DNA of 64,000 bases from Psilocybe cubensis (lineage: Eukaryota), in assembly GCA_017499595.2 (NCBI GenBank), contig CM039005.1, forward strand, positions 2,480,001-2,544,000. Direction: 5' to 3'. A program made the translations under genes and the position numbers. This document shows positions 6,904-63,708 of this stretch, one piece after another (the first letter of the stretch is position 1; each line of letters opens with the position of its first letter). The notes below the pieces were generated by a model. It was not told the origin of the DNA. It did not search any database and saw only the letters and a program-made list of their open reading frames with translations.

Positions 6904-6964
6904 CCCCATTGCTTAACTCAAAGATCAAAGCAATATATTGTGAACTTGTGTTTCTACTGTCAAC

Positions 6965-18313: not shown

Positions 18314-19554
18314 AAGACACACAAGTTGTTGTGTGGGCCAGTGCGTTGCATGGCAAATACAAGTCCCTTTTCCTAAGAATACATTTGTTCTTCAAATTTG
18401 TTGTCAATTTTTATGCACATTATATTATTATATTATTATAATATTAACAATGGAACTTGAGTCTGTACATAAGTAGCTGTAAGTTAATATACGCAAGCCT
18501 GAAAATTTTCTATAATGGCATACAAGCGGGCAATACTGTCCTCCGTCTCAAGAGCAAGTATTGAAGACAATGTAAAAACTGATTGCTGTTGTGACAAGAT
18601 TCCGTCCAATGTTTGTTCAGATATATTTGTAGAACGACAGCGTTACATACTGACGGACGGGGAAATTCCGCGGAATTCCGTCCGCCACGTTGCGCTGTGT
18701 AACACTCCAGTGACACACTGATAATTATTGTGTGGCACTCAGGTATTGCGCTGTATAGTACTGTGATGCACTAAATCTATACTTGTAGCACTTAAGTGTT
18801 ACATCCTAATGTATATATCTGCACTAGTAGCTGCCACTTAAATCAATCATAATGTGCTGAGTGCCTACATGGCGATGTGCATTTTCACCACGTTTTAATG
18901 ATATGAAATCATAGATTATTGCTATAAGTTATAGCTAAATGATATATCTTTCAATACTGTAACACAGCTAAGTAATTGCAAATCATTAAAAGGCTTGTAA
19001 TCTACAGTAATTTGTCAATAAGATATTATAAAATTGCTTGTAAGCTACCACATTCTGGAATCAGATCATTAAGATCATTGTAAATCACAGAAGAATAGTA
19101 AATATTGTATGATAGCATTGCTTGTAAGCTACCATACCACATAAGACAGTTTAGTTTTAACGTACATTACCTAAGATTTAATATCTAGGAGATTGCGTGA
19201 AACACGGTCTATTTTTGCTTACTAGCAATCTAGGAGATTGACATGATGTACGTGTCATTTAGACTAGAAAATCATAGCGTGGAACACGGGCCATTTAGCC
19301 TAAATGGCCCTGCCACCTATCTAGCTCAGAAAAAAAACATTCCGTGAGCCTGGCAACACGGAAAAAGAACATTCCGTGAGCCTGGCAACACGGACAAATA
19401 CTGTTCCGTGTTTTTGATTATTTTTGAATGCATGAAAGACCAATGACTTTGATGCATAATACCAATATCTTACATATGTATATTCAATGTTTATAATGTT
19501 TTGTTACTCAGTGAGAGACTAAATATTGACAGCTTGATTATACTTCGGCGGAAA

Positions 19555-20158
19555 GATGTGTTCCGTGTCAAAAACACAGAGGAAACTGGTGTTCCATGTC
19601 AAGGATGTTCTGTATCAAGAAAACCCTGTCAAAAACGCGGTGGAAAGTGTTATTCCGTGTCAGATGCATTCATGGTGGAACCTGGATGTTCCATGTCAAA
19701 AACACGGAGGAAAATGGTGTTCCATGTCAAAAACGCGGAGCAGGGGGTGTTCCGTGTCAAAACTTAGTGGAAACTAGTGTTCCATGTCAAGTATGTTCTG
19801 TATCAAGAAAACCCTGTCAAAAACACGGTGGAAAGTGTTATTCCGTGTCAGATGCATTCATGGTGGAACCTAGATGTTCCATGTCAAAAACACGGAGGAA
19901 AATGGTGTTCCGTGTCAAAAACGCGGAGCAGGGGGTGTTCCATGTCAAGAACTTAGTGGAAACTAGTGTTCCATGTCAAGTATGTTCTATGTCAAAAAAA
20001 CCCTGTCAAAAACGCGGTGGAAAGTGTTATTCCGTGTCAGATGCATTCATGGTGGAACCTGGATGTTCCATGTCAAAAACACGGAGGAAAATGGTGTTCC
20101 GTGTCAAAAACGCGGAGCAGGGGGTGTTCCGTGTCAAGAACTTAGTGGAAACTGGTGT
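19555..20158 (+). repeat. ~189-bp tandem units built from ~27-30-bp subunits (gttccRtgtcaaaaac), left TIR
   Basis: Unit starts near 19582, 19770 and 19959. Confidence 0.9.
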
Positions 20159-22049
20159 TTGAAAAGACAATTTTCTGAGTAAAGTGCATTCATAATGAAA
20201 AGTGCATTTATGTCAAAACAGCATACATGGTAGAAAGCATATCTATATCAAAATATACCTTGGTGTAATGTGTCTCTTTGTTGAAGTAATATATTGTTAT
20301 TTGTTTGGCTTTGTGGTGTTGTCTAAAAATATAACAAATAAGGATTTTCCGTTGTGTCATCAAGCTTGCTTCCTGAATCTATTAATAGTGCTCATCCTTT
20401 GATACTTTTGTGCATTGCTAGAAACCCATTGTGTGCTTTCTGGAGCACCAATGTGTCGTTTTTCTTTGGGTTTTTTGGTAATTCTATACTGAATATGAAA
20501 ATGAACTTATAATATATCAACATATTTCTGTGTAATAAACTGTACAATATTTGATTAACATGTTTTTTTTTAGTAGCATTTTCAAGGGGTTAGCCTGGAT
20601 CTTTTGAACTATTTCATTATTTTTTAATTAGGTTAAATAGATTGTATGCCAAGTTTGAGCTCAAATAGAGCATTTGAATTGATTGAACCATAATGTGTAT
20701 TCTACCCCTCCTCCTCTCCCTATATCAATGCCTTAATAATCAGATAATTTGAAGCCCAACTGGGAAGTCATAGGCATCTTTTACAAGAGCTTTTAGAACC
20801 CAGAATCATGATTAAATTCCTAGTATGAAGAGTAGTATTCCCCACCTCTTGTAAATACTGTATATTCTCTGATGGGGCAGAAAAAGTCTTGAGCTCTGAA
20901 ATAACATCTTAGAGCTACTTTACAGTATGTTATTAACATAGGACAGTATCTAGGAATATATTATATACAAAGAAACAGCTTGGGTAGGAAGCTACAACAA
21001 AGAAGTTGTGTGGTGTACATAATACAAGCATAGCTTCCTTTAAACTAGTCTATATTCCACAAAATGGACATTTATAAGTAGCTATCAATGTCCCTTATAT
21101 GTTACAGTAATACATGTAGGCCTTTCAACCAACCCTCAAGATGGTAGATGAAGAATATTAAACATATTCCAAGAATAGACAAAATGTGATATATACAAGC
21201 AAAGACATTGGTTATAAAATAAATGAATAGTACAGACCTGTAGCTCTAGAAAATACCTACAGAAAGTTAAAAGGATCATGAGATTCCGAGGTGTCTGGAC
21301 TGAGATATGTCAAAATGTATCTCAGAAAAATGTCAAAGTGGTGACCACAAACAAAGTATAAATAAAGACCAATATCCATCCGGGTCTCAGATGGGTTCTT
21401 TAACATCTTTCTTTGCATATCTCAGCAACCACTGGTCTGATGCACAACATCCTCTATATTCTGAAGAGCTAGAATCTGGGGCTACACAAATCTGCTTTTA
21501 TATATATTGATCATGGTCATTTATATATGGTAAATGGAACAATACTGCATATTTAATAGACAATGTTATTCACCTTGCACCATCTCCCATAATATATGTA
21601 ATTTTACACTTATTGACAAACATGTTTAGAGAATGTATAAAGGTATATATAGCTGTCAAGAAGATAGATTATTGTAAGGTGTTTGTAAAGATATGATCTG
21701 ATCACCAACACTCAACATTTCTTATCATGGCCACCTTAAATCAGGATGTTCTCATTCTCCAGGACAGCTACAGTACCATGTATTTGATAGTAGGCACTTT
21801 GAACAGCAAATAAACATAGGTAATAGATGGCTAAAACTCTATCTTGACAGATAATAAAAGATGCTGTGTCAGAAAAAGATGGGGAATAGTGCCACCCATG
21901 ATAGGAATTTCACATCAGTTATTGGCTTTAAAATTTGGAATAATGGGTGCTTAATATGACCCAGTTGTGCTTGAGGTTATCTGATCAGTAAAAGTTTGAT
22001 ACAAAAATGTTTTCTTTTTGGTGGATGCAGTTGATATGGAATATTCTTT

Positions 22050-22945
22050 TCCCCCATGGATGCACTTGACATGGAACATCCTTGAAATAGAACATCTCTT
22101 TCCACCAAGTTGTTAAGATGGAATATCTCCTTCCACCATGTTTTTGACACGGAACACCTGTGCTTTGCGTTTTTGACATGCAACACCTGTGCTCCGTGTT
22201 TTTGACATGGAATACCACTTTCCTCCGTGTTTTTGATATGGAACATCCTGGTTCTACCATGGATGCATCTAACATAGAATAACACTTTCCACCACGTTTT
22301 TGATATGGTTTTTTTGACATAAAACTTACTTGACATGGAACACTAGTTTCCACTAAGTTCTTGACACAGAACACCCCCTGCTCCGCGTTTTTGACACGGA
22401 ACACCATTTTCCTCCGTGTTTTTGACATGGAACATCCTGGTTCTACCATGAATGCATCTGATACGGAATAACACTTTCCACCGCGTTTTTGACAGGGTTT
22501 TTTTGACATAGAACATACTTGACATGGAACACTAGTTTCCACTAAGTTCTTGACACGGAACACCCCCTGCTCCGCGTTTTTGACACGGAACACCATTTTC
22601 CTCCGTGTTTTTGACATGGAACATCCAGGTTCCACCATGAATGCATCTGACACGGAATAACACTTTCCACCGCGTTTTTGACAGGGTTTTCTTGATACAG
22701 AACATCCTTGACATGGAACACCAGTTTCCTCCGTGTTTTTGACACGGAATACATCTTTCCTCCGTGTTTTTGACACGGAACACATTTTTCCGCCGTGTTT
22801 TTGACATGGAACATCTAGGTTCCACCATGAATGCATCTGACACAGAATAACACTTTCCACCGCGTTTTTGACAGGGTTTTCTTGATACAGAACATCCTTG
22901 ACATGGAACACCAGTTTCCTCCGTGTTTTTGACACAGAACACATC
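22050..22945 (-). repeat. Same ~189-bp array, inverted, right TIR (more units than the left)
   Basis: Repeated gtttttgacaYggaac; reverse complement of 19555-20158. Confidence 0.9.
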
Positions 22946-25900
22946 TTTCCGCCGAAGTATAATCAAGCTGTCAATATTTAGTCTCTCACTGAGTAACAAA
23001 ACATTATAAACATTGAATATACATATGTAAGATATTGGTATTATGCATCAAAGTCATTGGTCTTTCATGCATTCAAAAATAATCAAAAACACGGAACAGT
23101 ATTTGTCCGTGTTGCCAGGCTCACGGAATGTTCTTTTTCCGTGTTGCCAGGCTCACGGAATGTTTTTTTTCTGAGCTAGATAGGTGGCAGGGCCATTTAG
23201 GCTAAATGGCCCGTGTTCCACGCTATGATTTTCTAGTCTAAATGACACGTACATCATGTCAATCTCCTAGATTGCTAGTAAGCAAAAATAGACCGTGTTT
23301 CACGCAATCTCCTAGATATTAAATCTTAGGTAATGTACGTTAAAAATAAACTGTCTTATGTGACCATACCCTAGAGCAAAATCATTAGGGCTACTGTAGT
23401 CCACAGAAATGTAATAAATATTAGATTATATCATTCCTTGTAGATTACCATATGCTGGAATTAAATCATTAAGATCATTGTAAATTACAGAAGAGTAGTA
23501 AATATTATATGATATCATTGCTTGTAAGCTACCATACCCTGAAGCAAAATCATTAGGGTCACTTTAGTCTATAGATATGCAATAAATGCTAGATCATATC
23601 ATTCCTTGTAGGTTACCACATGATGGAATGAGATTATTCATTCCTTTCTGATTAGATATAAGCATGTATCTTATCTGTGCTTGGTCATTTGTGATATGAT
23701 GCCATCAATTCAGGAACCCTGGCTAAGTCTGGATCCTGCCATCAGCTCTATCAAAACTATTATTAAATAGACATTCTGATCTCGGCCCCTGGGTCTATAA
23801 TAATGCTCATCCTATGCTACTTTTGTGCATTGCTGGCAATGCATTGGGCGCTTTTGGGGGCATTTCTGGACCGTTTCCCTTGGTGTTTTTTGGTAGACCT
23901 ATAGTTTTAAGGTGTACCAATTCGAATCTGAAATCAGAATTGCAATATCTTTACTCATTATTGTGCAATTAAGCGTACGAGGTTTTGGTCAAAAGACGCA
24001 CCTTGAATAGCACCCTCCAGGGATTGGTATGCACCCTTCTGACTATGTCATTATTTTTTATTTATATTAGATAGAGTACATGCCAAGCTTCAGCTTAATT
24101 GGAGCAGTGGAATCTATTGAACTAGAATGTGCACCCTACCTCTCCTCCTACCCCTTGTATAAATGTTTTCCTGATCTGATACATTTGGGCCCAGCTAGGG
24201 CTGAGTAGGCGCTTATTTTAAAAATTTTTAGAGCCCATAATCTTGATTAAATTCCAAGATTTAAGGGTACTACCCCCATCTCCCTCCAGAACTTGTGTAT
24301 TTTATTATGGGATAGGATGGGCTCTCAAACCATTGAAAAACATGTATATCTACTACTAACAGTACATAGAGTCCAAAATTTACCCTTGAAAGCCCTCTTC
24401 AACAAGGAAACATACTGATTAAAGGGGAGGTATGAGGAGAGGTATGGTAGGTTATTGATCAGGCCATATCTCTACAAATACTTTGTCATAAATCATGTTC
24501 TTGACGTCTACAGATACCTATAGGTGCCTCCTAAATATCATTCTCAGTTTCTAAAAAGACCCATCCATTAGATGAGATACTGCAGAGAGAATACCATTCT
24601 TCATCAAAATGCACAGTATTTTTGCATTTACCATATATAAACATTCAAGATCAGGAAATATAAAAGCAGGATAGTATAGCCCCAAAATGCAGCTTTCTAG
24701 AACATCAAGGATGTTGTGCATCGGACCAGTGATTGTTGAGATATGGAAAGAAAGGTGTTGAAGAACCCATTAGAGACCCGGAAGGATATTGGCCTTTATT
24801 TATGCTTTGCTTGTGGTCACCTCTTTGGCCTTTTACCTTCTTATTAGCCTCATAACCAAGGTGTTCCCCTTCATCCTGAATGTTTCAAAGATATGTATTA
24901 TGTTTGTGGTACTATATAGAGCAGATTTACATATCTATATGTGCTGGGAATAGTCATTCTATCCCATAATAAAATACACAAGTTCTAGAGGGAGTGGGGG
25001 GTAGTACCCTTAAATCTTGAAGTTATACCAATATTTTGGGCTCTAAAAATTGGTATAATGGGCGCCTACCCTGCCCCAGTTGGGCCTAAATTTATCTAAT
25101 CAGAAAGGCATTTATACAAGGGGTAGGAGGAGAGATAGGGTGCACATTCTAGTTCAATAGATTCCACTGCTCCAATTAAGCTGAAACTTGGCAAGTACTC
25201 TATCTAATATAAATAAAAAATAATGACATAGTCAGAAGGGTGCATACCAACCCCTGGAGGGTGCTATTCAAGGTACGCCTTTTGACCAAAACCTCGTACG
25301 CTTAATTGCACAATAATGAGTAAAGATATTGCAATTCTGATTTCAGATTCGAATTGGTACACCTTAAAATTATAGGTCTACCAAAAAACACCAAGAGAAA
25401 TGGTCCAGAAATGCCCCCAAAAGCGCCCAATGCATTGCCAGCAATGCACAAAAGTAGCATAGGATGAGCATTATTATAGACCCAGGGGCCGAGATCAGAA
25501 TGTCTATTTAATAATAGTTTTGATAGAGCTGATGGCAGGATCCAGACTTAGCCAGGGTTCCTGAATTGATGGCATCATATCACAAATGACCAAGCACAGA
25601 TAAGATACATGCTTATATCTAATCAGAAAGGAATGAATAATCTCATTCCATCATGTGGTAACCTACAAGGAATGATATGATCTAGCATTTATTGCATTTC
25701 TATAGACTAAAGTGACCCTAATGATTTTGCTTTAGGGTATGGTAGCTTACAAGTAATGATATCATATAATATTTACTACTCTTCTGTAATTTACAATGAT
25801 CTTAATGATTTAATTCCAGCATATGGTAACCTACAAGAAATGATATAATCTAATATTTATTACATTTCTATGGACTACAGTAGCCCTAATGATTTTGCTC

Positions 25901-26889
25901 TAGGGTATGGTAGCTTACAAGCAATGCTATCATACAATATTTACTACTCTTCTGTGATTTACAATGATCTTAATGATCTGATTCCAGAATGTGGTAGCTT
26001 ACAAGCAACTTTATAATATCTTATTGACAAATTACTATAGATTACAAGCCTCTTAATGATTTGCAATTACTTAGCTGTGTTACAGTATTGAAAGATATAT
26101 CATTTAGCTATAACTTACAGCAATAATCCATGATTTCATATCATTAAAACATGGTGAAAATGCATATTGCCATGTAGGTACTCACCACACTGTAGGATAT
26201 AAGTGGCACACACCAGTCATATCTGACACTTTGGTCATAGATATTATTTCTAACGCCTACATTCCCTGGCTAAAGATTCCAGCACATAATCAAATTATTG
26301 GGGAGCTTGCTCCCCTTTGTACTGGTGGGGACCCAAAATGCTTAAGCACACATGATCCACCAGTATTTTGATCGTCACCCCGTGCGAAAATGGCACCCTG
26401 TGCAAACCTAGCAGGGAGACCTGCCGACATTTGTGATGCGGCAAGATTCTACTAGAGCATGCCAGGTACTGGCATAGCAAATTAATTGTTCTTTTGGGTT
26501 TGCCGGTGTGTATCAATAGGGGGAATTTCTCCTTGTGTGCTTCCAAAATCTTTCATCAGCCAGATTGCTTATGTGAGGCTTTCCAGACGGAAAGTCTCAC
26601 ATAAGCAGACAAGTATGTTGTAATCAATCCGGCCATCACTGGATCAAATGGTAAACACATACCTCATATATACCTCAATATGAGTCTTTCCTCTTTGCTC
26701 ATACCTCGACTCTGGTCCATTGCAGGCGGTTGGAAAGTGACTCAGGACTACGGGAGGATAGGTTGGAGTGAATCAGGGGAGACCTATGAATGGGAGACCC
26801 AAAAAGGTACGCATCCATGTCTCTTTCCATTATTTAATTGCCCTAAAGTGTTTCCCATTGCCTGCAGTGTCCCAACAACATTCTTCAAA

Positions 26890-42469: not shown

Positions 42470-43087
42470 TATTATCAAATTATTAAATAATTAACTTAAT
42501 AAAAAGGTAAGGGACTGGGTGAACTTTTGCTTGCCTGCAATAATTCTTGTCGGTCCCTTGGGTAACTTCTATTGATTGGGCTTTTACTATTTCTTCAAGA
42601 GATTTGTTGGAAGTATCAGCTTCAGATGCCTTGATCAAATCTTGTCAGAGCAACACTATAATCAGTGTGACAAGGCCACCAACAAAGATCAAGCAAGAGA
42701 GAGAGAGAGAGCGCAGAGGGAGAGTAAGAGAGCAGAGAGAGAATAAGAGAGTGAGAGAGACTCAATGATTCTAAGAGATCACACCAATGATAGTGGATAT
42801 CCTAAGAGATTGAAGCTGAAGCTACAGCTACCTACAAGTCCAGTATTTATACTCTACAGCTATTCTAGAATATTCTCTACATTACATCATAAAGGAAGGT
42901 TAAAGAATAAAAGTGACATTATATAGAAAAAGGATGAGTAAGACTAGGAATCATATAGAATTTACTAGAAAGAAGTGGAGCAAGAAGGCTGTGATGAAAG
43001 AAATAAACTATCTAATCAGATAATTGATAAGGAAAGGATAAGATAATTCTGTGAAAATAAAGAGGGGAAACTGGAGAAACCCTGACA

Positions 43088-46000: not shown

Positions 46001-46949
46001 CATTGGGAAAGAGAGGATAAATCTTGGATCTATAAGGTTCAAAACCAGGTTTCAGCTCAATAGCATGATCCCAAGGCTTCCTGTCTGGTAGCCTATCAAA
46101 AGATTCCTTTGAAAAAACACCTTTAAACTGGTAATAGTGCTTAGGGACAGTTTCTTCAAAGGTTTTCTTAGGAGAATCAGCTTGCTGATGAGACTCTTCT
46201 GCTAATCTTTGAGACATAGTAGAAGTAGCATTAATAGACTGCTTCTGAGGATGAAGGTATGAGATGAAAATTCTGTCCTCAGGCTCAATCTCAGAATCAG
46301 AAGAATCTTCAATAGAATCATCTTCTTCTTTATCAAATTGAGGGAGTTTCCTCCTTTTGACTGCAGCTATTCTCTGCCTCTTTCTTCTGGCTCTTTTGGC
46401 TTCCATTTAGCAGTCAGAGGGACATCTAATAAACTGAACATCCCCTGTCTTCCAATCAACATCTGGATTATGGTGCCAAAGCCAAGTATGTCCAATGATA
46501 GCAGATTTGTCTCCCAAGTCACAAATAGCAAAGGTGGCCCTTTCTGTATGGTTCTTGTGTACCATAATTAAGTCTACTTCCTCATGGATAGAGCCACTCT
46601 TGTTGAGAGTACCATCAACATTATAGACTGGAATGGCTCTAGGAAGTTTCCTTGTGTTGAGATTATGATACTTCACAAAACCAGAATGCAGAAAGAGGCC
46701 AGTAGCTCCAGAATCAAGCAAAGCATCAACAGATAACCTTTTCTCTGTGTCCATTGTCTTTAAGATGACAGACAAATGGGTAGAGGTTTTAGGATTATGG
46801 TTGAGGATGTAGATCTTTTCAGGGAAGGTAGAAAGAGAGGAAGAAGAAGACATGATTTCTGCACCAGAATCTGAAGACTGAGGATCAAGTCTGTCAATTT
46901 CATTTTTTAGTACATTAAATTTATTCCATTGGGACATGTCTTTCACCAA
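43088..46949 (-). pseudogene. Gypsy Pol (PR-RT-RNaseH-IN-chromodomain); stop at 46407-46409 and 3' frameshifts
   Basis: ALLDSGAT, VYMDDILI, EADSSDYA, ISVDFI...CDRGPQF...GQTERINQ, RYGPYKI, WEVEFIKDSR...QYLVKWKNY. Confidence 0.93.
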
Positions 46950-46957
46950 TGGTGCTT

Positions 46958-48067
46958 CTAAAAATTTTTCTTTTCCTCATCTTTCTGCTCCTTGCCTTCC
47001 AAGATTAATTTCCCAAAATAGTCAGCCAGTTCTTCATGGGTCATAGCATTGATGTTAACTGATGACCTGCAGTTTACAGCCTTATGACCAGGCTTTGTGC
47101 ACTTGAAGCAAATAATTGGCTTGACTGACTTCCATCCAGAGTCAACCTCCATGGGAACTACATCTGGTTGCTTTGCCTGAGCACCAAAAGTCCTTGAGCT
47201 GCTGTTGGAAAAGACTGGAGGATTTGGAGTAGGCTTAGGAACAGCCTTGGGAGTTGGGGCTTTAAGAAAGGGAGAAGAGGAGAAGGAGGAAAGAGACTTG
47301 GTAAAGGCCTCACTCTGCCTCCACTGCCTATCTAGCCTAGTACTCCATTTAATCCATCCATCCAAGGTTTTGGGCATGTCAGGAACATAGTAGACTGCAT
47401 TCCTGAGATTTTCATTAAGCCCAGCCTTGAATTGGTCTACCAAAGCAGCATCATTATACCCAGTATCTGAGATCAGAGCCCTGAAGCTAGCAATATACTC
47501 ATCAGCAGTCTGCCTGCCTTGCTTGAGCATGTGCATTTTATGCTTAGCTGTGTTGGAGGGGTCTGGATCTGCAAACACTTCCCTAAATTCATAAACAAAG
47601 TCAGCCCAAAGACCTTCTTGGGACTGAGCATTGTCTATTACTTTAGTCTTCTCATATGCCCACTTCCCAGCAGTACCTCCTTTCATATGAGATAGAGCAC
47701 AAATAATTTTCTGAAAGTTATCTGTAATCCCTTTCCCATAGAAATATAATTTGAGCTGACTGAGGAAGTTTTCTGCCTTCTCCATAGAACCATCAAATGG
47801 ATCTGGAGGTGAGACTTTAATGACAGAGTGTGAACAGGAAGGGGCAACATGAGGGGCAGGGAAAGAGTGAATATCTAGAGCAGCAGGTGGTGGTGGTGGT
47901 GGTGATGATGGTGACTGACTGACTGGTTGCTGAGGGTGTGGTGGAGTGGATGATGACTGCTGCTGCTGTCTAAGAAAATTCAACTCTTGGGTAAGGAGCT
48001 GGACCTGATGCATGAGCTCTTCCACAGAAGAAGAGGTGGGAGGCAATTGGGAGGGGTCCATGTCCAT
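46958..48067 (-). CDS. Gypsy Gag (retrotransposon gag domain plus CCHC knuckle)
   Basis: PDPFDG...FLSQLKLYF, LKQGRQTADEY, FKAGLN, VVPMEVD, CFKCTKPGHKAVNC. Confidence 0.92.
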   Translation of the reverse strand: MDMDPSQLPPTSSSVEELMHQVQLLTQELNFLRQQQQSSSTPPHPQQPVSQSPSSPPPPPPAALDIHSFPAPHVAPSCSHSVIKVSPPDPFDGSMEKAENFLSQLKLYFYGKGITDNFQKIICALSHMKGGTAGKWAYEKTKVIDNAQSQEGLWADFVYEFREVFADPDPSNTAKHKMHMLKQGRQTADEYIASFRALISDTGYNDAALVDQFKAGLNENLRNAVYYVPDMPKTLDGWIKWSTRLDRQWRQSEAFTKSLSSFSSSPFLKAPTPKAVPKPTPNPPVFSNSSSRTFGAQAKQPDVVPMEVDSGWKSVKPIICFKCTKPGHKAVNCRSSVNINAMTHEELADYFGKLILEGKEQKDEEKKNF

Positions 48068-50997
48068 GGGTAGGGGTAGGTAGGCTCTCTGATGTGTGTG
48101 TGGGAGAAGCTATCTACTGAAAGTGCCCTTGAAACTATACTAAGTACTCTAAAAAAATATCTATCTACTGGATACCCAGTTGTCACACCACTCAGGGCTC
48201 TAAACCTAGGATCACAGGGTTACTGGATATTTCCTAGACCACCAAAAACAGAACACTAGTAGGACTGTGTCTGCCCCAACAGTTGGTATCCCTATCTACT
48301 AAGTTCACACACAGCACACAACAGAGAGTAGGAAAGATGGTGAGCCAAAGGTCTTGAGGAAAAGGTCTTGAGGAAGATGTTGAAGGTTGGTGGAGAGGTA
48401 GAGGTTGCTAAAGAGATTGGTGAAAGGGTTGGTGAAGAGGTTGGTAGAGATGAAGAGTTTGGTGTTGAAAGAGAGATGGTGGAGTTGTCTTGAGAGAGCT
48501 TCAATCTTCTGTCAGGGCAACACTATAATCAGTGTGACAAGGCCACCAACAAAGATCAAGCAAGAGAGAGAGAGAGAGAGAGAGCAGAGAGAGAGTAAGA
48601 GAGCAGAGAAAGAATAAGAGAGTGAGAGAGGCTCAATGATTCTAAGAGATCACACCAATGATAGTGGATATCCTAAGAGATTGAAGCTGAAGCTACAGCT
48701 ACCTACAAGTCCAGTATTTATACTCTACAGCTATTCTAGAATATTCTCTACATTACATCATAAAGGAAGGTTAAAGAATAAAAGTGACATCATATAGAAA
48801 AAGGATGAGTAAGACTAGGAATCATATAGAATTTACTAGAAAGAAGTAGAGCAAGAAGGCTATGATGAAAGAAATAAACTATCTAATCAGATAATTGATA
48901 AGATAATGAAAGGATAAGATAATTCTGTGAAGATAAAGAGGGGAAACTGGAGAAACCCTGATACTGCCCCCTGTTTGATTCCCCCACCAGAAAATAAGGA
49001 CCATGAAGACCCTTGTATGTATTTGGAACAAAAAATGCTTTCATTATTTGAGTTAATAGGAATTAGTACTTGGGCTCTGTGGCCCAAGCGTTTGCTACAG
49101 GTACCATGCACCACGCTCTCCTCCCCTCCTTAAATTTCCTCCCAAGTTCATCCAGCAGTAAATGGACTGGGTCTTTGATATATAGGGGTTCTTATAACCA
49201 CATTTGTCTGTATCATGAGGGACATGCTGCATAGTCCAAACGTCAATGGCCGTTGCCATCCAGGTTCCCTCCTAAAGATAGGTTGCGTTATATTTGCATT
49301 TTTGGCATTTTTGGTGGGCTTTCGTTACAATTAATGTAAAATCTTCCACTTGCTGACTGTTCACGTCAGCATTTTATTTCTACAGTTGTCCTTGGTACAG
49401 AGGAAAGAGCAGTCCTGGAGACTCCAGTTTCTACTCTTACTCAGGCCATGCTGATTTGTAAAATCACGCTGTTGGTTAGTTTGGTTTTGGCAGGGGACTG
49501 TTTGATGGTATAGCATTGCATTACTTTATTTCCAAAATGATCTATCTAATGATTTGCTACCTAAAGACGGTTGCTCAAGGCATGTTATTGCGATCCCTGC
49601 CCTCCTTTGGTTTAGAACTGCAGGTGAGTAGGCAGCTTGGTATATCTCAAATTATACACTAACTAGCATCGATATATTGAAAAGGTGGTTGATGTGTGGC
49701 TGTTATGTTAAACAGGAATTCTACTATATTTCAATCCGAAGAATTCAGGCCTTTGACAGCCATTTTTATGTCTTTCACACTGGGATTAAATCTGTCGTGC
49801 GCTTGTAAGCCTCTGACATTCTTTAATACATCAATATATTTTTTAAATATATATGCAGACTTGATTGTTTGCAAGATTTGCCAGGTCGACAACCGTGGGC
49901 CCATTAAAGTAATGTTGGGATAGAAAAATATTGGGCGGTCGGCAGTGATTATAGCTTTGCAATCCACAACAATATACACTGCAGTAGTCAGCAGCTGCAT
50001 GACCGTGTACCTCTTCAGATCTACGGCCTACTATTCTCTGGAGTGTATCGTGAGTTATATGCTTTTAAAGATTCTCAATCACATTCAAACATTCTCTCTA
50101 GATGGTTCCCCTCATTGCATTAATCCACATATATTCTTTATTGAGTTTTTGGCTTTCTATTGTTGGAAATAGTAATGGGGTATTGGATTACATTTCCTCT
50201 CTTAACATAGTTCAGGGCCAAGGAATTGCAGAAATGGATAGGGGAGATAGGGGAGTTGTTCGTTTTGCCATAGGCACGGAGTCTCAAGAGGACGCTAGAT
50301 CAACTGAAATTACAAAAAATGCTATGGAAATGACTACAGTCAGGGGTCTGTCTCAAGCAGATGATTAATCAACAGTAGTGACTGTTGTCAGTTTGTTTTC
50401 CATTTATTAAAAAGCTCTTTTGAATTTTGAATAGCTCTGGACTCCTAACTTGAGAATTTTGCTGGCGTTGCCATCTTGATGAATGTGGCTGAGGTAAGAA
50501 GGCCCAAATGAGGCAGGCAAGCTCGCTTGTTTTCTTTACCTTCTTTCTTCCCTTTTTTTCCTTAAAGCCCTTGCATAGGCATCTGCAAAAGGCTTGACCC
50601 TTTGTAGAGAATAGCCGACTTAGGCAAACATAAGCACAGCACAGGCGCAGTTTGTCTGCTCCAGCAATGGAGGAAGCAGGGGAGGGAGCAACATTGTTGC
50701 AAACTCTGTTGGACTGAAGCACAGCACAGGCGCCTTCCAACATCTCTTTTAGAGAGCCTCTTTAAAAGGTCCTTTTTACCCAACAACATTCTTGATCCCC
50801 TTTTCTCCCCTTTGCCGTACTACATCTGCTTCTCCTTATTCTGCACCGCAAGAGCTTGTTGTTCCCCAGCATGCCTCCAACAAACATTCTGCTTGTTGAG
50901 TCTGCTTTCTCGACGACAATGGCGTGGGACAATATCAAGCTGAACAGGGGTGTGTTGCAGCATAGATGGAATCCCCTTCACTATAATTTGTTCACTT

Positions 50998-52047
50998 ATG
51001 GCCATGGAGGAGCGTTTTCTGACTGCGGCACTTGATGATCTGATTAGACCACTGGATTAACTGTCGCTGCTCGTGGTAAGTACATACAATTTGCCATTTA
51101 CGTCTGCAGACGCACGACTTACGCATTCCACAGATTCATCTCCTCCAAAACAAAAGGGAAAGGCAAGGGCAACATCTCTTCCAGAGCTTGGAAATGTTGC
51201 GGTGCATCGAAACTCAACAAAGTCTGGGGGGGAATGTCTATAGGATGGCGCTGGATGTTCCCACTGGCAAGGAGCATGTATCCCTAGAACCTTGGAATGC
51301 TGTTCTGACGACACCGGAACTTAGGCAGGAATGGGACCCAGCTGCGGAAAAGGCCCACTTGATAGAGCTATTCAACCGTAGCAGTCAAATATCCAAGACA
51401 AACTATACTCTTGGTTGGCCTGCAAAGTGCGTTGCTTGTACATACTGATTATGCATATCTGATTTCTTGTATTCAGCCCATGTGACTCTGTGACAATCTC
51501 CCGTGCTTTCTACGACTCCACTACTCTAATTGATATATCCACATCCCTTTCACGACCTCCAGATGAGCCTGCCTAACTCCGCCCATCCCTCCTTATGTTA
51601 GATCCAATGTCCAACGTGCGTAGCTTATCCTCTTAATATCTAACTTCGAATTCAAGCTTGTCCTAGTATTCTCTTGGTGTATACAACATATCCAACCTAT
51701 ACCTCCCGCCTCTCCAAACAATAAGAAATCAGGTTTGCCAGGAAGAATACCATTGACGTGTTTTTGGCTATACAATTTCTAAGCTCTCTGGGGCTTTGGT
51801 ACATCAATGGCGGCGCTGACTCAACAGTTGGCAACAATGACCCTCAAACATTTGAATCCTTCCCCTCCCTTTGCGGCCAACGCCCACTTCCGGATGTACC
51901 GGGCTCTTGAGAGGACACAAATGACAATGACTGCGCCGGCGTGCAGATCAGGGTTAGAGGCATATACGCCACCTTTCTTGACAACCAGCAGCTTAATGCT
52001 GCTGGTTCCCTCTCCACCGCCCCTTCTCTCTTCTTACATACTGACAC
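50998..52047 (+). pseudogene. START/Bet v1-like lipid-binding domain gene fragment, truncated by the KDZ element terminus
   Basis: LTTPELRQEWDPA.E.AHLIE...ISKTNYTLGWPA(N)PCDSVTISR...LIDISTSL..PPDEPA*LRP; introns retained; stops. Confidence 0.7.
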
Positions 52048-52520
52048 CACATAGGACAGTTGTATAATTACATACCTTACGATATATTTAAAATTGATGA
52101 ATTGACGTAATGCACGGGGTGATTTACATTAAGTACTAAACTAAAAATACCCCGTCCCCTATGGTCCAGCTGGAACGGCTAATTTTTCTCTTGCCACACG
52201 GGCTATTTATAAATAAATGGCCCCCTCGCTGGCCCATGACGGACCATGATATTTGCTCCGTCTGCGCATCACGGCAAAATTCGGAGCCGACTGCTCGCGG
52301 GACCCGTCCACGGGCCGTCATATTCTGCCCGTAAATGAATCACGGGATCAGTCCAAGCCATAATATTAGCTTGCAGTACCTTATCTAGTCCGAAAGTTAT
52401 GCTTGACGCGGGAAAATATGAGCCGTGTTTGAAGAACCCAGGACATAACATACCCAAAAATTACATTAATCAGTGCCTCCAATAATCAATTCACCTACCA
52501 ACCCACTGTTTTCAAACATA

Positions 52521-53761
52521 ATGAGTCAGCCCATTAATATGACCCAAGCCCTTTCTACTTACATGCAATCATACATGGCAAGCAAGGTCAACAACGTAAT
52601 GCCTACATTGATTCCGGAAGATATGACTGCCAAAACATTGTATGAGTGTAATCTAGCTGTTGAAATAATTCTGGAGGCCCACTCAAATCAAGGTAAGTGC
52701 TAAAGAAATTTACCAAAAAGTCAAGGTCTCAGACTGCCTTATACCACATTAGAGCAAACTAAATGGAATGCAAACAATTATGTTGAACACTTGTCAGAAC
52801 ATTGCACTGGAAGAAACAATGCCGTTGAAGACAATCTAAAAAATTTATTTCCACCAATACATCTTCCAATGTTGTATTGGTGCAAATCCGGAACTGTGGC
52901 TAATAGTGAGGGGAACATTCTGGCATGGTATTTGCCTGGAATCTTGATAGAAAGATGGGTGGTGAGTGCTTTAAATAAATGTCAGGTAAATATCTGAAAA
53001 CCTCAGAATTCTACATGGAAAATGCTACAAAATATTGAAGGTCTCATTCGTATGACCCCTTCATCAACTAGCTGGAGGGCCAACAAAACTTACTTCAGAC
53101 ATGAGTCTGCCTGGCTGCGCCCAGGAAATGCCAACTTTTCACCTGCTTGGTTTCAGCAAGGGCATGAGGTAGGGTGTTTTATTCTTTCTGTGATTTATTG
53201 ATTTGAATGCTTTGGCAGCAATCCAATCCATTGGAGGTTTTGGCTGATCTCACACATCTCAACGGACTATCATTTATTGCCAGTCTAATGACTACTTTGG
53301 CATTGATTGGAGCCATCCTAAGCATTATTCATCTGGCAAAGTTTTGGGCCGGAATGGAGTTCCTCGAGCGGATATCGTCTCAACCCAAGATCATTCACAA
53401 GGCTGAACTTTTGAAGCATATCCTTACTTTCTGGACTTCCCCCTCTGGCGTCATCAGTATCATCAGCAATAGAGACACGCCTTTTCATTGTGACAATGGG
53501 TCTTGTCACCCATGGTATGATTTGCTCATGCCATTGGGCAACTATGAAAATGGGAGAATTGAACTTCCAGGCATTGGCATAAGGTACAAGTATGATCCAA
53601 CAACATTATTTGCAATTTCAGGAAGAGTGCTACAGCACGGGGTAATATGTGATGGAGACAGAGCAGTTTTAGCCTTTTATATGCGTAGATTGGTTTTGGA
53701 ACGACTAGGAGTTAGCAAAGTGGGATGGTCAACTTTCTCCAATATTCTTCAAAACTTGTAG
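52521..53761 (+). CDS. Fungal TET/JBP-family 2OG-Fe(II) dioxygenase; predicted exons 52521-52692, 52753-52961, 53007-53168, 53219-53761 (361 aa, open)
   Basis: ILAWYLPG, FSPAWFQQGHE, NRDTPFHCD (HxD), LQHGV (distal His), GDRAVLAFYMR (2OG-binding Arg); GT-AG introns keep the frame. Confidence 0.85.
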
Positions 53762-55545: not shown

Positions 55546-57409
55546 GGTGGTCTTGTGGCAATATTGATCAGTTAGTTGGAGAAATATATAGATTACAAGT
55601 TTAGTAAATAGAACAGGTGACCTAATTTGTAGTTATAAAAATCCACACGGAGGGATAGTTTCCGTTTATCTTCTAGAATTTGACATCGGCGGCCCACCCC
55701 AAGTCATTCCACATTGCTATCTGCTTCTGACAGAAAGCCCTATGACCTGCCAAGCGGTCCGGAACAATTTCATGCCGTTTCTTCCAAGTCTTGGCCATAT
55801 GGACATAAAATCTCACCATCTATTCCATTTCTTTGTTTGTCAGGGATAGTTCTTATTTCCATCTGTTTCTTTGAGCCCTAGCTCTCAGCCAGTTAAGACA
55901 AAAGACTTGCAGATTTTAGATAGTTTGTAGAGTCAAGAGAAAGATAACTCACATTCATTGACGTATAATTGGTTATCGGCATTGAGTCCTTGGCGGGATC
56001 TCCAAATCCAACTAAGCCAGTCGGAACTGCTGCCCCGAACATTCAGATCCAAAATTGCTGCGCTGTGCTTGCAATCATGGTCATATAAAACAGGAAACTC
56101 CCTCCGTATCTGCATAATATCCTCTTCGGAGTGGCCAGCAATGCGAATCATTGCTATCCAGTTTGCGTTGTAAATCTTTTTGTGCAATTTCCAAGATGCA
56201 TTCAACAGTTTGACTCCGTCCCATGCGCGGGTGCCTGTGTATACCAAATCTGCCATGCGGACTTGATATTTATATTGCCACGAGAGCTGAATGAGGGCTG
56301 ATCTAACTGCCTCAAGACAATCTTCAGCATGGCCCTGGCGAATGTGTAACTTGAGTTTTTGCAGCCCTTTAAGTTGGTGAGCCATGCCTTCTTCAAGATC
56401 TTGGAAATAATCATCAAGCAGTGCTGACAGGAACGGGAGAGGTTGCCGTTCCGGATCCGCCCGGATAATGTTGACATTCCCAATGTTGGCTATCTCATCA
56501 TTGCTGACTTTGTTGTTAAGAACTGGGGTATTAACTTCTTGAATACTCTCCAAAGCCTCTTCCCCCAAGAATGTCAATGCAGTACGGCTGAAAGCCTCGA
56601 CTCGTGTTCGCATTGACCGACATTTATTAACCAAATCAAGCTGTTGAGCTGTGGATGGATGAGTTCCAAGTTTGCGAACATGGCTTCTTAGCTCTAATCT
56701 GTAGGGTATAAAAATATATAAAATTCAAAAAAATAGAAAACATACTGAGCTTGTTCCAATTTCAAGCCAGATGAAATCCAAGCAGCCTTGCCTGTAGCTC
56801 CGGAGGAAGTCAGCTCCATATTTGAGAGATGTAATTCAATTTCTTGTCATCCGGCAGCAGTTTTCACTTTGCTTGCCATTACTTGACTCATAGCATTGGA
56901 TACTCCTTGATCCCAATCAAACTCGGCCTGTTTGATTTCTTGCTCCCATGTGTCAACTAGCTTGGAAGGTTGTTGTTCCGTAAGATTTCGGTAGAATGCT
57001 TCTGTTATGCCGGACTGTTCAACGGCCCGCTTGTACTTGGCCGCTATGGTGGCAGCTTTGCAAACATGAAATATTGTTTTTTTCCAATTTGAATCACCCA
57101 TGTGGTCATCCAGAACTTCAGCGCGGTGTGCAGTGGTTGCCAAACGAGTACTTTGGGAAGTATCATTGAGGACGGACCAGAGAGGTTCCAATATTTCTCC
57201 ATCAATAATTCCAACGCCCGGAATGTAGGTTGACACTACTACTTACCACCTTATATGATATAACCTGACAGTATTTCAGCACAACCTCATGTTAAATTGC
57301 CAGCATATGTATAATATGAAAAATTGTGGTATACTAAGTATGAAATATATTATTTGTATTGCCAGGGTATTTTTCATATGCACTGACAACTGTATATTAT
57401 TTATTATTC

Positions 57410-57668
57410 TGTGCCAGCAAGTTTATCATAAGCCGCTGGCACGAATATTTCATTGGTATACCAGCACATATATTATTCTGTGCCAGCGAGTTTATCATAA
57501 GCCACTGGCACAAATATTTCATTGGTATACCAGCACATATATCATTCCATGCCAGCCCCATATCATTCCGTGCCAGCAAGTGTATCATAAAACACTGGCA
57601 GAAATATTTCATTGGTATACCAGCACATATATCATTCCGTGCCAGCAAGTTTATCATAAGCCGCTGGC
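57410..57668. repeat. ~69-bp tandem units containing tgccagc...gctggca mini-palindromes
   Basis: Units start near 57411, 57480, 57570 and 57639. Confidence 0.85.
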
Positions 57669-60524
57669 CACTAGTAGTTTCAATTTTATATTATTATATC
57701 TAGACAACTGTCTACAGGCAAACTGAACTGTTATCCAGTAATTCATATCATTGTTTATCTAGGAATTTCATTACTATTGGGCATTTCATTCCTAGACAAA
57801 AATATGATATCAAACCAATTGATTTCATTACTTATTGGCTTGATTTCATTTCAATTGAAGGCTGTTTTATTCCACTATTATCAACGATTTCATTGCAATT
57901 TCATTTCTATCTTGAAGTATTTCATTAATATTTAGAATTGATTTTATTAGCTGTAGAGGTGATTTCATTATGATTTCATATCTAATCTTATGATTATCTA
58001 GGCTTGATAATCCTGTACTAGATTAATTAGTGCATGCTATTTTTGGCCCAGGAACTCGGACTAAATATATTAGAATTAGGGCTGACAGCCATCACATTAG
58101 GGCCCTGTCCCTGCCCCTTCCCTTGGCTCCTGGCTCTATAAATAACACTCATCCTATGCTACTTTTGTGCATTGCTGGCAATGGATTGGGCGCTTTTGGG
58201 AGCATTTCTGGACCGTTTTCCTTGGTGTTTTTTGATAGACCTATAGTTTTAAAGTGTCCCAATTCGAATCGGAAATCAGAACTGCAATATCTTTACTCAT
58301 TATTGTGCAATTAAGCGTACAATGTTTTGGTCAAAAAGCGCAGCTTGAATAGCACCCTCCAGGGGGCAGCATGCACCCTTTTGACTATGCCATTATTTAT
58401 TATTTATGTTAGACAGAGTACATGCCAAGTTTTAGCTCAATTAGAGCAGTGGAACCTATTGAACTAGGATGTGCACCCTACCCCTCCTCCTACCCCTTGT
58501 ACAAATGCCTTCCTGATCAGATAAATTCAGGCCCAACCAGGCCTGGGTAGGCGTCTATTATACCAACTTTTAGAGCCTAAAATCTTGGTGCAATTCCAAG
58601 ATTTAAGGGTACTACCCCCCACTCCCCCCAGAACTTGTGTATTTTATTATACAATAGGATGTGCTCTCAGACCATTGAAAAACATGTAGATCTACTAATA
58701 ACAGTACATAGAGTCCAAAAGTTACCCTTAAAAGCCCTCTGCAGCAAGGAAACATACTGATTAAAGGGGGGGTATGAGGAAAGGTATAGTAGATTATTGA
58801 TCAGGCTATATCTCTACAAATACTTCATTATAAAAAATATTCTTGACGTCTACAAATACCTACAGGTCCCTACTAAATATTATTCTCAAGGTTCAAAAAG
58901 ATCCATCCTCTAGATGAGATGCTGCAGAGAGAATACCATTCTTTATCAAAATGCACAGTATTTTCGCATTTACCATATATAAATGTTCATGATCAGGAAA
59001 TATAAAAGCAGGATAGTATAGCCCCAAAATGTAGCTTTTCAAAACATCCAGGATGTTGTGCATTGGACAAGTGGTTGCTGAGATATGGAAAGAAAGGTGT
59101 TGAAGAACCCATCAGAGACCCGAATGGATATTGGCCTTTATTTATGCTTTGTTTGTGGTCACCTCTTTGCCCTTTCTCCGAGATACATTTTGACATATCT
59201 CAACTCATACTCATCAGGCCACCATGATTCTATATACCACAGGAAGGTATCATTTAGGCCTACATGACTGTACTATCTATGTATTTTTTGGATATCACTT
59301 TGCCAGTCATATTTTGCTTTTTGTGTATTTGTGCCTCATTGAGGGTATTCTTTGTCTGGCATCTTAGGACCTTGTTGGGGAGCTTTGCATCATTAAAAAA
59401 CCATGTAGGGGGCGTAAATAACTACCCAGAGAGGTATATTATATGAGCAACAGTGCAGTACCTGCAGTGATACACCCATATTATGAATGTTATACAATCT
59501 CACTTCAGTTGTCTCAGAAACAAGCTGTTCCTTACCATTTAAGGTCTTCTAAGGGTATGTTTTATGTTTATAGAATGCAAAATGTTAGCTGGATAAGTTT
59601 TTATCATGTCTATATGCCCATCCTACCTCATAATAAAATACACAAGCTTTGGAGAGGATGGGGAGTAGTACCCTTTAATCTTAGAATTTCACCAATATCT
59701 TGGGCTTTAAAAATTAGTATAATAAGCGCCTACATTATCCCAGTTGGGCTTGAATTTATCTAATCAGGAAGGTATTCATACAAGGGGTAGGAGGAGGGGT
59801 AGAGTGCACATCCTAGTTCAATAGGTCCCACTGCTCTAATTGAGCTAAAACTTGGCATGTACTCCGTCAAACATAAATAAAAAATAATGGCATAGTCAGA
59901 AGGGTGCATACCAACCCCTGGAGGGTGCTATTTAAGGTGCGCTTTTTGACCAAAACATCGTACGCTTAATTGCACAATAATGAGTAAAGATATTGCAATT
60001 CTGATTTCATATTCGGATTGGGACACCTTGAAACTATAGGTCTACCAAAAAGCACCAAAGGAAACGGTCCAGAAATGCCCCCAAAAGCACCCAATCCATT
60101 GCCAGCAATGCACAAAAGTAGCATAGGATGAGCACTATTTATAGACCAAGGGGCCGAGGAGAGAAAAGTTTATTTAATAATAGCTTTGATGGATTGATAG
60201 ACATGGCCTAGAAGTACCCACAGTGTTCCTGATTTGATGGCATGGCATCAGAAATGACCAAGCAAAGATAAGATATATTGATGTAGAACAATCTTATCAA
60301 ATAACCAGGCTGGTATCTAATCAAAAGGTATTGAAAAAGCGCCCTAAAGATAATGAGAAAGAAGGGTATTATCTAATGAAAAAGGCTTTGAAAAAGCGAA
60401 GTAAACTTATAAGAAATAGACCAATCTTCTCATTATTTTGCTTTGTGATAAAACCATCAACAGTTATAAAAAGAGTGTGCTAACACTTGCTATTGTTTTA
60501 TCAAAAAAATGGTAGGTACCACTC
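57669..60524. mobile_element. Nested asymmetric element: CACTAGT end, palindromic core (~58125-60155), GAGTGG end
   Basis: CACTAGTAG at 57669; ...GGTAGGTACCACTC at 60524 as at 6903; imperfect flanking match (gctggc/actggc) within tandem repeats. Confidence 0.8.
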
Positions 60525-60845
60525 ACTGGCATCAAATGAGAAATATGGCTGACATTCTATAAAAAATGTGGGTGGCATGGAATGAGAAATTTGGTTGACA
60601 TCCAATGAGAAATACGGCTGGCATCCAATAAGAAATACGGCTGGCATTGAATGAGAAAAGTGGGTGGCATGGAATGAGAAATTTGGCTGATATTTAATGA
60701 GAAATTTGGCTGACATTCTGTGAAAAATTTGGTTGGCATCCAATGATAAATTCGGCTGATATTCAATGAAAAATATGGCTGGCATCCAATAAAAAATAGG
60801 GCTGGCATTGAATAAAAAATGGGGCTGGCATTGAATGAAAAGTGT
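60525..60845. repeat. ~21-bp tandem array (ggctggcattcaatgagaaat)
   Basis: Consecutive degenerate copies seen directly. Confidence 0.85.
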
Positions 60846-63708
60846 CACAGCTTTTTGATAAATGGCTGGTAGGATATCTCATTTATTTACCACAATTTTT
60901 CATATCTTTATTCACTAACAGATTTACATGAGGTTGTGCTGAAATCTAGTCAGTATATATCATATAAGTGGTAAGGACCACTCAGGTTGAGGCATACTTG
61001 TATAAGCATTCAGATTTATGCCCATGGATGTGGAAAAGACCAATAGCAAAGGTTATTTTGACAGAGGGGGGCCAGTGCATCTTTGTAGAGTCAGTCAGAT
61101 GCTTCATGAGATTGACGCAATATTGGCAGTTGATATCGTAAATTTCCAGATGCCTAGTGATGCCTTTAGTATTTGTTGTTTCCCTTGCCTGTGTTAAGGA
61201 CCAATCCATGTGCATTTGCTTCTTTCCTTTGTCGAAATCAACAACACTGTTAGGACAAAAGCATCCATGTCTTGCACACGCATGGGCGCCTATTCCTCTA
61301 ACTCGTTTTCTAGGGCTAACTCTATTCTCTGCTTTTTGTGCATGGTAGTTGTGACAAGTTGGTTCCTGGAAAAGTTGTTAATTGGAAGCATGCTGAGCTG
61401 CGGCGGGAGCATGTTAGGCCGCGGCAGCAATACACTTACCCATTTATAATGTGGTGCCAGAGAAATAGCTTCCTTTATATGCTCCTTGTATGGCCCAGGA
61501 TTGGTCATAAAACCTTCTCCAACACTGAGCCAGACATCGTCTCCCTTGTTTTTTTGATTCAAATGATTGGCTTTGAAGTTTCCATCTGCCACATAGCTAC
61601 GAATATAGATATCACTAATATAATGTGAGCTTAATAATTGAATAAAGGTATTCTGCTTACCTATTGGCTTCAAGAACCCAGTTATCAGATAGATTAACAC
61701 CTGGCTGTGGACATGCTGGACAGAACAATGTCAAGGACCCTCTTTTATCTGGCTTGTTTCTGGATGGAGGTTCAGGTGACATATTATTTGGGTCAGAATC
61801 ACCTGGATCAACTTCCAACCGGGATGTTGTATCATTCCGTTTGGGAACTTCGTTTGGTTCCGATGGTCGGGATGAAGAATTGTTCCGTGTTTGCCCTGTT
61901 TCCAGAGATGTTATTGAGCTGAAAGATTCCTGATTGGGATGCATTTTGGAGCCTTGTTGTGGGTATTTCAACTCCATATAAGCCTTTAGAGCCTGTTTAG
62001 AGTGTCCTTGACCGTGTATTTTGTGCAATATAAGGTTTCTGTATTGGCGACTAAGCCTTCTCAGTTCCCAATAGCGGTTCAGAACCTTTTTGGGAAATGA
62101 AGATGAGGTAATGCGTCTGAGCTTTTGATAATATTGATAGCCCAAGGTTTTGCATTCAAGGTTGGTAACCCTAAAATCCTCTAGCATGTCCAGTGTAAAC
62201 AAGGTTCGGATATTCTGAAAACTAGTAGCAAAAAGACCCATTTCCAGATATTGCAAATCTAAAGGCAGCACGGCAGATTGGCAAGTACAAGTCCAAATGG
62301 GTAGATAGTGTACTCCGGATGTATGAATAATAACTTTGAATGGGATACCGTCATTATCTTCTGCCCTTGGATGGGGTTGATCGTGGAAGCTTGTATCAAG
62401 TTCTCCATACAAGTTGATATCCTCATTGTCTCCATCATCCAGTTCAAACAGAATTGGGATTTCAGGATCTGCAAAAAGCTGAGATGTGAAAGACTCTTTG
62501 TCATTGTTTGCTGGGATTGGACCAATGTCATGAGTATCCGTAACTTTGGCGGCATCACGAGTCCCGCTCCTGTAGTATTCATTGGCGGCATCATGATTCC
62601 CGCTCCTGCTATATTCATTGGCAGCAAGTGATGTGCCGCTCCAATAGTTGTTTTTAGCGGCAGATTGAATCCTGTTTCCAATATATCCTTCGGCTCCAAT
62701 GCTTGTCCTGTGGGTACTCTTGTTTAAGGGCAATTTTACTGGACACTTCTTTCCATTATGACCAAGATACAACCTAATACCTACTTCCCATAAACCTCCA
62801 GGACAAAAGTACTCCCCTGTCCATTTCTCGACTCGGTGAAATGGAACCAGTTGATGGTTTTGTCTCAGACAGTGAGGGCAAACAAGCTGAGATCTGAAAC
62901 ATTCAAGGCATCTCTAACATTCCGGGAGTCTTTGGCATTGCTGGCATTGATTATCCCAACGCGGAGAAGGCGCCTCCCAGCCAATGAGTGTCCCGAGGTA
63001 TATTTCTCTTTTTGGAAGCCACTCTCTAAGGTAGTCATTTTGAGACTAAGATAATAATTTGTGAGCAAGAACATCTCAATATATTGACACAGATATACCT
63101 TTTCTCTTGTCCTAACATCCTGTAACTCTCTCAAGTTGTCAATTACCTGCTGGTCTGTCAGATCTTCCGGATAGTGAGGTATGTTTACTTCATCTATATT
63201 GTGTTCAAAGTGTTGTAACATGTTTTGGGCAGGTGGAGGAATAGAAGTGGAAGATTGGCTTGTATCAGGTCTATATTTCCTTGGCCTTCCTCTTTTCCTT
63301 CAAGCCCCAGAAGACCAGCTTGCCTCCTTGGGGCCGTTGCTATCTGATCCATTACCTGGCACAGTATGAAAGCCTATGGAAGTGGGAAGCAAAGTGTCTG
63401 AGCACCTGTGAATTTCATTCTAAATACAGTATTCCATTGATAGCTCTTCACCATGTGCATTAAATTTATTTTAGTCTACATAATCTTTTTGAGGGAAAAA
63501 ATAGCTTTCATATGACCTATCTTGCAAGAAATTTGGAGAACTGTAGCCAATTTTATGAACAAGTTTTATTTTAGATGTGCAGAAAATGGTTGTGATCCCA
63601 ACAGAAATGCATAATGTGATCTACATACAATGACCTTTCAAAACCACTCTCCTGAAGTATTTTGGCCATAACTCTCCATGCACATACTCCCTACTCCTCC
63701 GGCATATA

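Follow-up and report, generated by a model that had tools for sequence, protein, structure and literature searches.

Position 52048 is very likely the TET-side end of a Kyakuja (KDZ) transposon, and a foldback element lying elsewhere in the same window is, as part of this explanation, a Kyakuja derivative that was moved in trans, with a sister family as the likeliest mobiliser. The window is the whole stretch of 64,000 nucleotides that was analysed, and the main features in it are collected in Table 1. The transposon at 52048 is a DNA element of the cut-and-paste type, in which the end is followed by a TET gene on the plus strand and then by a converging CxC2-KDZ gene on the minus strand. Its assignment to Kyakuja was made from domains, end motif, gene layout and the length of the target site duplication (TSD) rather than from a transposase tree. 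The host is an agaric, and the closest named proteins come from Psilocybe.

The terminus at position 52048

The original prediction placed the end of a TET-carrying KDZ element at 52048, and the terminus is now well supported as that of a TET+/CxC2-KDZ (Kyakuja) transposon by contig joints, TET loci from metagenomes, an alignment of ends and an independent profile. The 14-nucleotide match that had been reported is real, with CACATAGGACAGTT at 52048 and CACATAAGACAGTT at 19138 agreeing at 13 of 14 positions. An inverted CACATAAGACAGTT is also present at 23362 and again agrees with the 52048 sequence at 13/14 positions. When one mismatch is allowed, CACATARGACAGTT has exactly three matches in the window (52048, 19138 and 23362) compared with 0.06 expected, and three matches were reached in none of 100 shuffles. 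A terminus of the CA..TG type (CACATAnnnCAGT type) is present for this transposon at one end only, that at 52048.

Public sequencing runs provide evidence of a different kind. The analysis covered four of nine runs (X1, X5, X6 and X8, with X2, X3, X4, X7 and X9 left out), and read depth rises in the bin containing 52048 in all four. Among the loose contig ends listed, the joint of an X6 contig falls on 52048, and an X1 contig that carries another flank meets the element at 52046, with 2 bases shared. The junction as it stands in the window is crossed with 0 differences by contigs from X1 and X5, two runs that belong to different studies; X1 is possibly the source sample.

Scanning metagenome contigs for TET yielded 58 loci, of which 37 reach the TET N-terminus, and the 26 of these 37 with at least 560 nt of upstream sequence formed the testable set. 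CACATAnGACAGT occurs within one mismatch on the TET strand, 389-673 nt upstream of TET, in 10 of the 26 loci (seven families), and in 0/26 on the reverse strand, which served as a control; the distance from the 52048 motif to TET in the window is 473 nt. One family includes four sister copies (92-98% identical) with four flanks, and their divergence starts exactly at the motif. CACATAnGACAGT is not present at one mismatch or fewer in 16 of the 26 loci, where five start at a variant of CACATATGG, two start at CAGTTAGGG, one is truncated where its contig begins, and eight have no visible terminus. A second TET family starts CACATATGG(G/A)AGC, and a third starts CAGTTAGGGCAGT. Twelve loci extend as far as KDZ, and in each of them it lies downstream of TET on the opposite strand, as it does in the window.

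A profile made from six metagenome ends alone finds position 52048 with E 6e-10, and its only other matches in the window are the two ends of the foldback, which are weak (E 1.3). The alignment of TET-side ends is nearly gap-free over ~170 nt, and ACGG-type boxes, which are candidate transposase-binding sites, recur in it near +66, +113 and +150.

Several other observations were made on these ends. Three local junctions suggested that insertion favours targets whose flank ends in AC, but only 3 of 18 flanks fit, which does not support the idea. At a Kyakuja end in locus L011 (positions 80-113), the terminal motif is doubled in tandem, with two CACATA starts 22 nt apart. A TET alignment scan of viral contigs found no relative.

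The original prediction further held that the element makes a 7-bp TSD. This length stands for the lineage, given the foldback, elements C and E, and the published families (Hiltunen 2021; Kojima 2025), whereas for the copy at 52048 it is predicted only, because the far end lies beyond the window edge. A further nested insertion, seen at 63709-64000, starts upstream of the transposase gene, and thus another element would be met past the right edge before the far end of the Kyakuja transposon is reached.

Genes on either side of the terminus

The TET gene matches Pfam Tet_JBP (E 5.9e-11) and CcTET (E 2e-20), keeps the iron-binding H-x-D, and has S and D at the positions of CcTET G331 and D337. 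Its closest named protein is 86% identical. In the transposase gene, the KDZ domain (PF18758) flanks insertion E, covering profile positions 52-168 and 170-217, and CxC2 (PF18803) lies upstream of it (E 4e-19). Among scanned KDZ homologues 14 of 15 carry CxC2, and intact Pleurotus KDZ genes all do so according to the portion of PMC7641404 that was available. The features expected of a Kyakuja member, namely a KDZ domain, a CxC2 cluster and an AG-type-like TET with H-x-D, are all found here. Two lesions break the KDZ gene, insertion E and a change of frame near 55909, and this copy of the transposon is dead because element E sits inside the KDZ domain. Contigs from X5 and X6 carry the E-free form, with a single AGGTTGA at the KDZ site.

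Upstream of the terminus, a START gene had been thought to break off at 52048. Its homology in fact stops at ~51846, about 200 bp short of the terminus. When homologues were aligned (residues ~53-262 of a 1,821-aa homologue), 49 of 67 ended at 51845 and none went past 51929. An X1 contig parts from the window at positions 51115 and 51846, and these are also the exact limits of the alignment with a 4,888-bp contig from X6. Since the break point was wrong, the proposal to look beyond the window for the remainder of that gene was misdirected. The 200 bp from 51847 to 52047 have no match to START homologues and no more than short, weak matches in the window, and the region 50400-51846 resembles a patchwork of gene fragments.

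Table 1. Coordinates of the principal features in the window
Feature	Position	Strand	Description and evidence
Decayed START-domain gene fragment	51115..51846	+	Residues ~53-262 of ~1,800; homologues, contig breaks
Predicted left copy of 7-bp TSD, CTGACAC	52041..52047	+	From the sequence and the Kyakuja TSD length
TET-proximal terminus	52048..52223	+	13-bp terminal motif CACATAnGACAGT and ~170-bp nearly gap-free subterminal array
TET/JBP dioxygenase gene, AG-type-like	52521..53761	+	4 exons; Pfam, CcTET match, tblastn exon map
CxC2-KDZ transposase gene	55667..63045	-	Tail-to-tail with TET; Pfam, tblastn of homologues
Element E, non-autonomous insertion in KDZ domain	57234..60983		3,750 bp; ends CACTACTAC.. 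/ GAGTGGTCC..
Element C, host of foldback	18822..26218		Ends CACTAGTAG.. / GACTGGTGT..; exact 7-bp TSD ATATCTG
Foldback element	19138..23362		4,225 bp; TET-proximal Kyakuja type at either end; arms 19138-20159 and 22339-23362
Foldback left TSD, ACCATAC	19131..19137	+	
Foldback right TSD, ACCATAC	23363..23369	+	
Foldback empty site, one ACCATAC	25905..25911	-	Opposite arm of host element C
Non-coding central module of foldback	20365..22004		67-74% identical to cores of elements A, B, C and E

The foldback element

The foldback is a non-autonomous element of the Kyakuja type, present in one copy in the window. Its host, element C, is itself a larger element with inverted repeats, and the foldback lies within one of the two arms. 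Its arms of ~1,022 bp are 97% complementary, with one difference in the terminal 420 bp, and their inner part consists of ~189-bp tandem units. The clean 7-bp TSD attributed to it was confirmed by the duplicated sequence on both sides together with the empty site within the window. The next base of the empty site is C, so that an 8-bp TSD is formally possible, only with asymmetric foldback ends; the symmetry of the ends favours 7 bp rather than 8.

No match was found in 19138-23362 when 150 KDZ homologues were searched by tblastn. The long open reading frames of the foldback sit in its tandem repeats, and the core is interrupted by stops in all frames, which rules out a coding function for this shared module. 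Because the foldback has no coding capacity, it must have been moved in trans. The core, which has an internal inverted repeat of ~500 bp, has counterparts at 4513-5712, 9602-11306, 23780-25486 and 58121-60159, and it is shared by elements of two different end types.

A mechanism can be proposed for these elements. KDZ transposases are RNase H-like (PMC5751038, as far as the available portion goes). The enzyme may bind the subterminal ACGG-type boxes, and it would then cut at CAC...GTG and integrate with a 7-nt stagger, which would give rise to 7-bp TSDs. The TET enzyme probably strips silencing methylation, as Kojima has proposed. On this explanation the foldback is a gene-less derivative with the TET-side end type at both extremities, and tandem repeats may have stretched its ends into inverted arms of 1 kb.

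Relationship between the foldback and the 52048 family

Looser similarity past the 14 nucleotides had been described over ~75 bp. The similarity is real, and this length is too short, since the two ends are collinear over ~180 bp. At offsets 14-180 there are 97 identities in 171 positions, a score reached by 0 of 1000 shuffles, and offsets 75-180 alone give the same result (0/1000). Later offsets were reached by 8/1000 shuffles (180-300) or carry no signal (300-450; 749/1000). The 180-bp score was also reached by none of 4,934 other window segments. Overall, the foldback and the KDZ end at 52048 are 58% identical over 176 nt, which is equal to the identity between that KDZ end and locus L007. 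The claim that the foldback is a non-autonomous partner therefore holds loosely, in that the ends are related and a transposase is lacking, but 58% identity is no closer than that seen with other fungi. Since this identity is only at the cross-species level, the foldback was probably mobilised by a sister Kyakuja family that shares its genome and not by the 52048 family.

The alternative that fares best has an even chance of being right. It holds that the Kyakuja family, or its sister, has ordinary terminal inverted repeats (TIRs) of ~255 bp, and that the foldback is an internal-deletion derivative whose arms were amplified in tandem later. The depth of raw X8 reads is ~330 at 52129-52257 compared with 155-212 in the interior (~1.6-2.1x), and contigs from X5 and X6 leave the element at 52302 with the same continuation. 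Also, the available parts of the literature report Marasmius Kyakuja elements with 80- and 400-bp TIRs (PMC8290104) and TIRs of 236-241 bp for Cryptococcus KDZ1 of the Dileera clade (bioRxiv 2024.08.15.608186; PMC12810828). However, Kyakuja-1_LB and Kyakuja-2_LB are given without TIRs in the accessible part of Kojima 2025 (PMC12730594), the loose end at 52302 and the extra depth could come equally from other non-autonomous copies or from a sister subfamily, and no metagenome locus reaches the far end. TIRs of this kind would fit the main explanation, and a step in which the end was doubled would thus be dispensable.

A direct partnership between the non-autonomous foldback and the 52048 family, as originally proposed, is unlikely. 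Both have the same terminal motif and, at an offset of ~148, a CACGGGC..TTTA..TAAATGGCCC block, and when the foldback was compared with 25 scored ends over offsets 14-180, the window KDZ end ranked highest (z 6.7), followed by L007 (z 5.8). Nevertheless, their identity does not exceed cross-species values even though the foldback looks young (1/420). Diverged KDZ/TET relatives are present in the runs (short shared stretches, 200-370 loose-ended reads), and Psilocybe is known to have a TET that is 61% identical. Furthermore, TSD length alone cannot tie the foldback to the 52048 family, because a second end type with 7-bp TSDs shares the foldback core.

A much weaker case can be made for a foldback from another superfamily (CMC/CACTA, hAT7, P or MULE) whose match to the KDZ end arose by convergence or chance. 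CAC..GTG ends and long arms do occur in CMC elements, such as MarorCMC-6 with 4,252 bp and a TIR of ~1,240 bp (PMC8290104, available part), and hAT7 elements also give 7-bp TSDs. This origin is very improbable, given that those CMC families for which the same material gives a TSD have 3 bp (PMC8290104), that the hAT7 ends compared start CAACGG or CAGCGA, and that the foldback shares ~170 bp of collinear homology with Kyakuja TET-side ends. Even less credible, and in effect refuted, is the notion that an artefact of assembly or an internal breakpoint lies at 52048, because, although the window shows no TSD partner for CTGACAC, contigs of two runs span the junction unchanged and the motif is the exact start of sister families whose flanks differ.

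A second end type in the window

Another class of ends, which starts CACTA.T.. or GA.TGGT.. and continues with CCAC/CCAT, accounts for at least 11 termini in the window: 591(-), 4148, 6903(-), 9045, 12061(-), 18822, 26218(-), 57234, 60524(-), 60983(-) and 63709. Elements C and E have unlike ends and exact 7-bp TSDs, that of E being AGGTTGA (57227-57233 and 60984-60990). No TSD surrounds element A (4148-6903) or element B (9045-12061). This second end type possibly represents another KDZ lineage. It was found at E below 1e-6 in 3 of the 58 TET loci, in or beside TET+ elements of other fungi (L021:3723, L023:2899 and L047:11670), and no TSD-bearing partner end was found for these three. Its occurrence at the TET+ elements of other fungi indicates that it is widespread, or that it favours Kyakuja DNA.

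Unrelated features were also noted in the window. A Copia-like element (6950-12910, recognised by eye) is interrupted by element B, apparently with part of pol lost and without a TSD at the insertion. A Tc1-like element with 213-bp TIRs lies at 40863-42471 (Pfam DDE_3, HTH_Tnp_Tc3_2) and is adjoined by an LTR retrotransposon at 42638-48972, whose LTRs of ~470 bp are 95% identical. Minus-strand fragments at 39489-40625 resemble a tyrosine recombinase by eye and have no Pfam match. An Rfam search of the window found nothing.

Comparison with published KDZ transposons

The view that termini and TSDs of fungal KDZ elements are less well defined than their proteins is outdated, as the available parts of two reports already give both (PMC12730594; PMC8290104). 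TET+ Kyakuja elements are described with 7-bp TSDs, CA..TG ends and CACATAnnnCAGT termini (Kojima 2025; PMC12730594, available part). In a comparison that covers the first 400 nt of each row of Table S1 of PMC12730594, and therefore 5' starts, 11 of 38 Kyakuja consensuses start CACATA and 8 fit CACATAnnnCAGT by eye. The element at 52048 most resembles Kyakuja-1_LB, which starts CACATATGACAGT and likewise combines KDZ with an AG-type-like TET, CA..TG ends and a 7-bp TSD; its terminal 13-mer agrees at 12/13 positions with the window end and also with the foldback (PMC12730594, available part). The 38 Kyakuja rows include no Psilocybe family; the text gives the two Laccaria families as lacking TIRs, and no non-autonomous Kyakuja is described in the portion of PMC12730594 that was accessible.

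Non-autonomous members are known from Marasmius oreades. For MarorKyakuja-1 to -7, the available part of Hiltunen 2021 (PMC8290104, Table S3) lists a 7-bp TSD for six and a 7-8-bp TSD for the other. Five families are marked non-autonomous, three of them with TIRs (200, 28 and 22 bp), and an autonomous family has a 400-bp TIR. These elements are like those of the window in TSD length and in having non-autonomous members. They differ in starting CCCAATGAGG, CCCAGTGAAA and GAAAAGTAGG rather than CACATA, and the non-autonomous ones measure 0.5-1.6 kb, whereas the foldback measures 4.2 kb and has 1-kb arms (PMC8290104, same portion). MarorCMC-6 parallels the foldback in layout and size (4.25 kb, TIR of ~1.24 kb), but it has a 3-bp TSD and CACTGGG ends and belongs to another superfamily (PMC8290104, same portion).

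Cryptococcus KDZ1-3 and KDZx1 are also KDZ transposons with TSDs, and KDZ1-3 have 139-241-bp TIRs and have been observed to move (bioRxiv 2024.08.15.608186 and PMC12810828, each as available). Unlike the window element, they are Dileera (CxC1) or Zisupton-like (CxC4, SWIM), their TSD is mostly 8 bp, and no TET is named for them in the available parts of the two papers. The available literature gives an 8-bp TSD for the Chlamydomonas CBA1 insertion, which is assigned to Kyakuja-3_cRei, and the works used for comparison also include 10.1101/2022.06.16.496473, likewise available in part.

Other assignments were considered and rejected. Zisupton and Dileera make 8-bp TSDs, in contrast to the 7 bp of the foldback, C and E. 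Abr1 is a precedent for a 7-bp TSD. It was set aside because it is classed as hAT-type in the accessible portion of PMC10051438. The Zisupton/Dileera terminal motifs also differ, with CACATA starting 0 of the 11 consensuses among those listed in the available part of PMC12730594 and with Marasmius Dileera elements starting CACCT (PMC8290104, available part). The 2-5-bp TSD of CMC/CACTA elements (PMC12730594, available part) does not agree with the 7-bp TSDs seen here.

Implications for Kyakuja biology

Because the 7-bp TSD, the terminal motif and non-autonomous relatives were already published, the value of these results is in that respect confirmatory. What is left as new is the conserved end architecture, a foldback that possibly has a single end type, and a second 7-bp-TSD end type sharing the foldback core. 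In the literature searched, which did not extend to Repbase, figures or subscription papers, no account was found of a Kyakuja foldback that has CACATA ends and arms of 1 kb. The known Kyakuja families gain a well-bounded member from an agaric that resembles Psilocybe.

The TET-side end of ~170 bp, conserved across fungi with its three ACGG-type boxes, offers concrete candidates for the sites at which a transposase that has been little studied would bind, and the foldback represents a natural minimal substrate. A bolder and rather doubtful interpretation is that the parent lacked TIRs, that the foldback was moved by means of two TET-side ends, and that its core has been carried between two unrelated end systems. 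If this were true, one end type would suffice for Kyakuja transposition, which would bear on how the ends of TIR-less Kyakuja elements are paired. There would also be modular swapping of ends, CACATA-type in one system and CACTA.T/GA.TGGT-type in the other, among KDZ-dependent foldbacks that insert into Kyakuja transposase genes as well.
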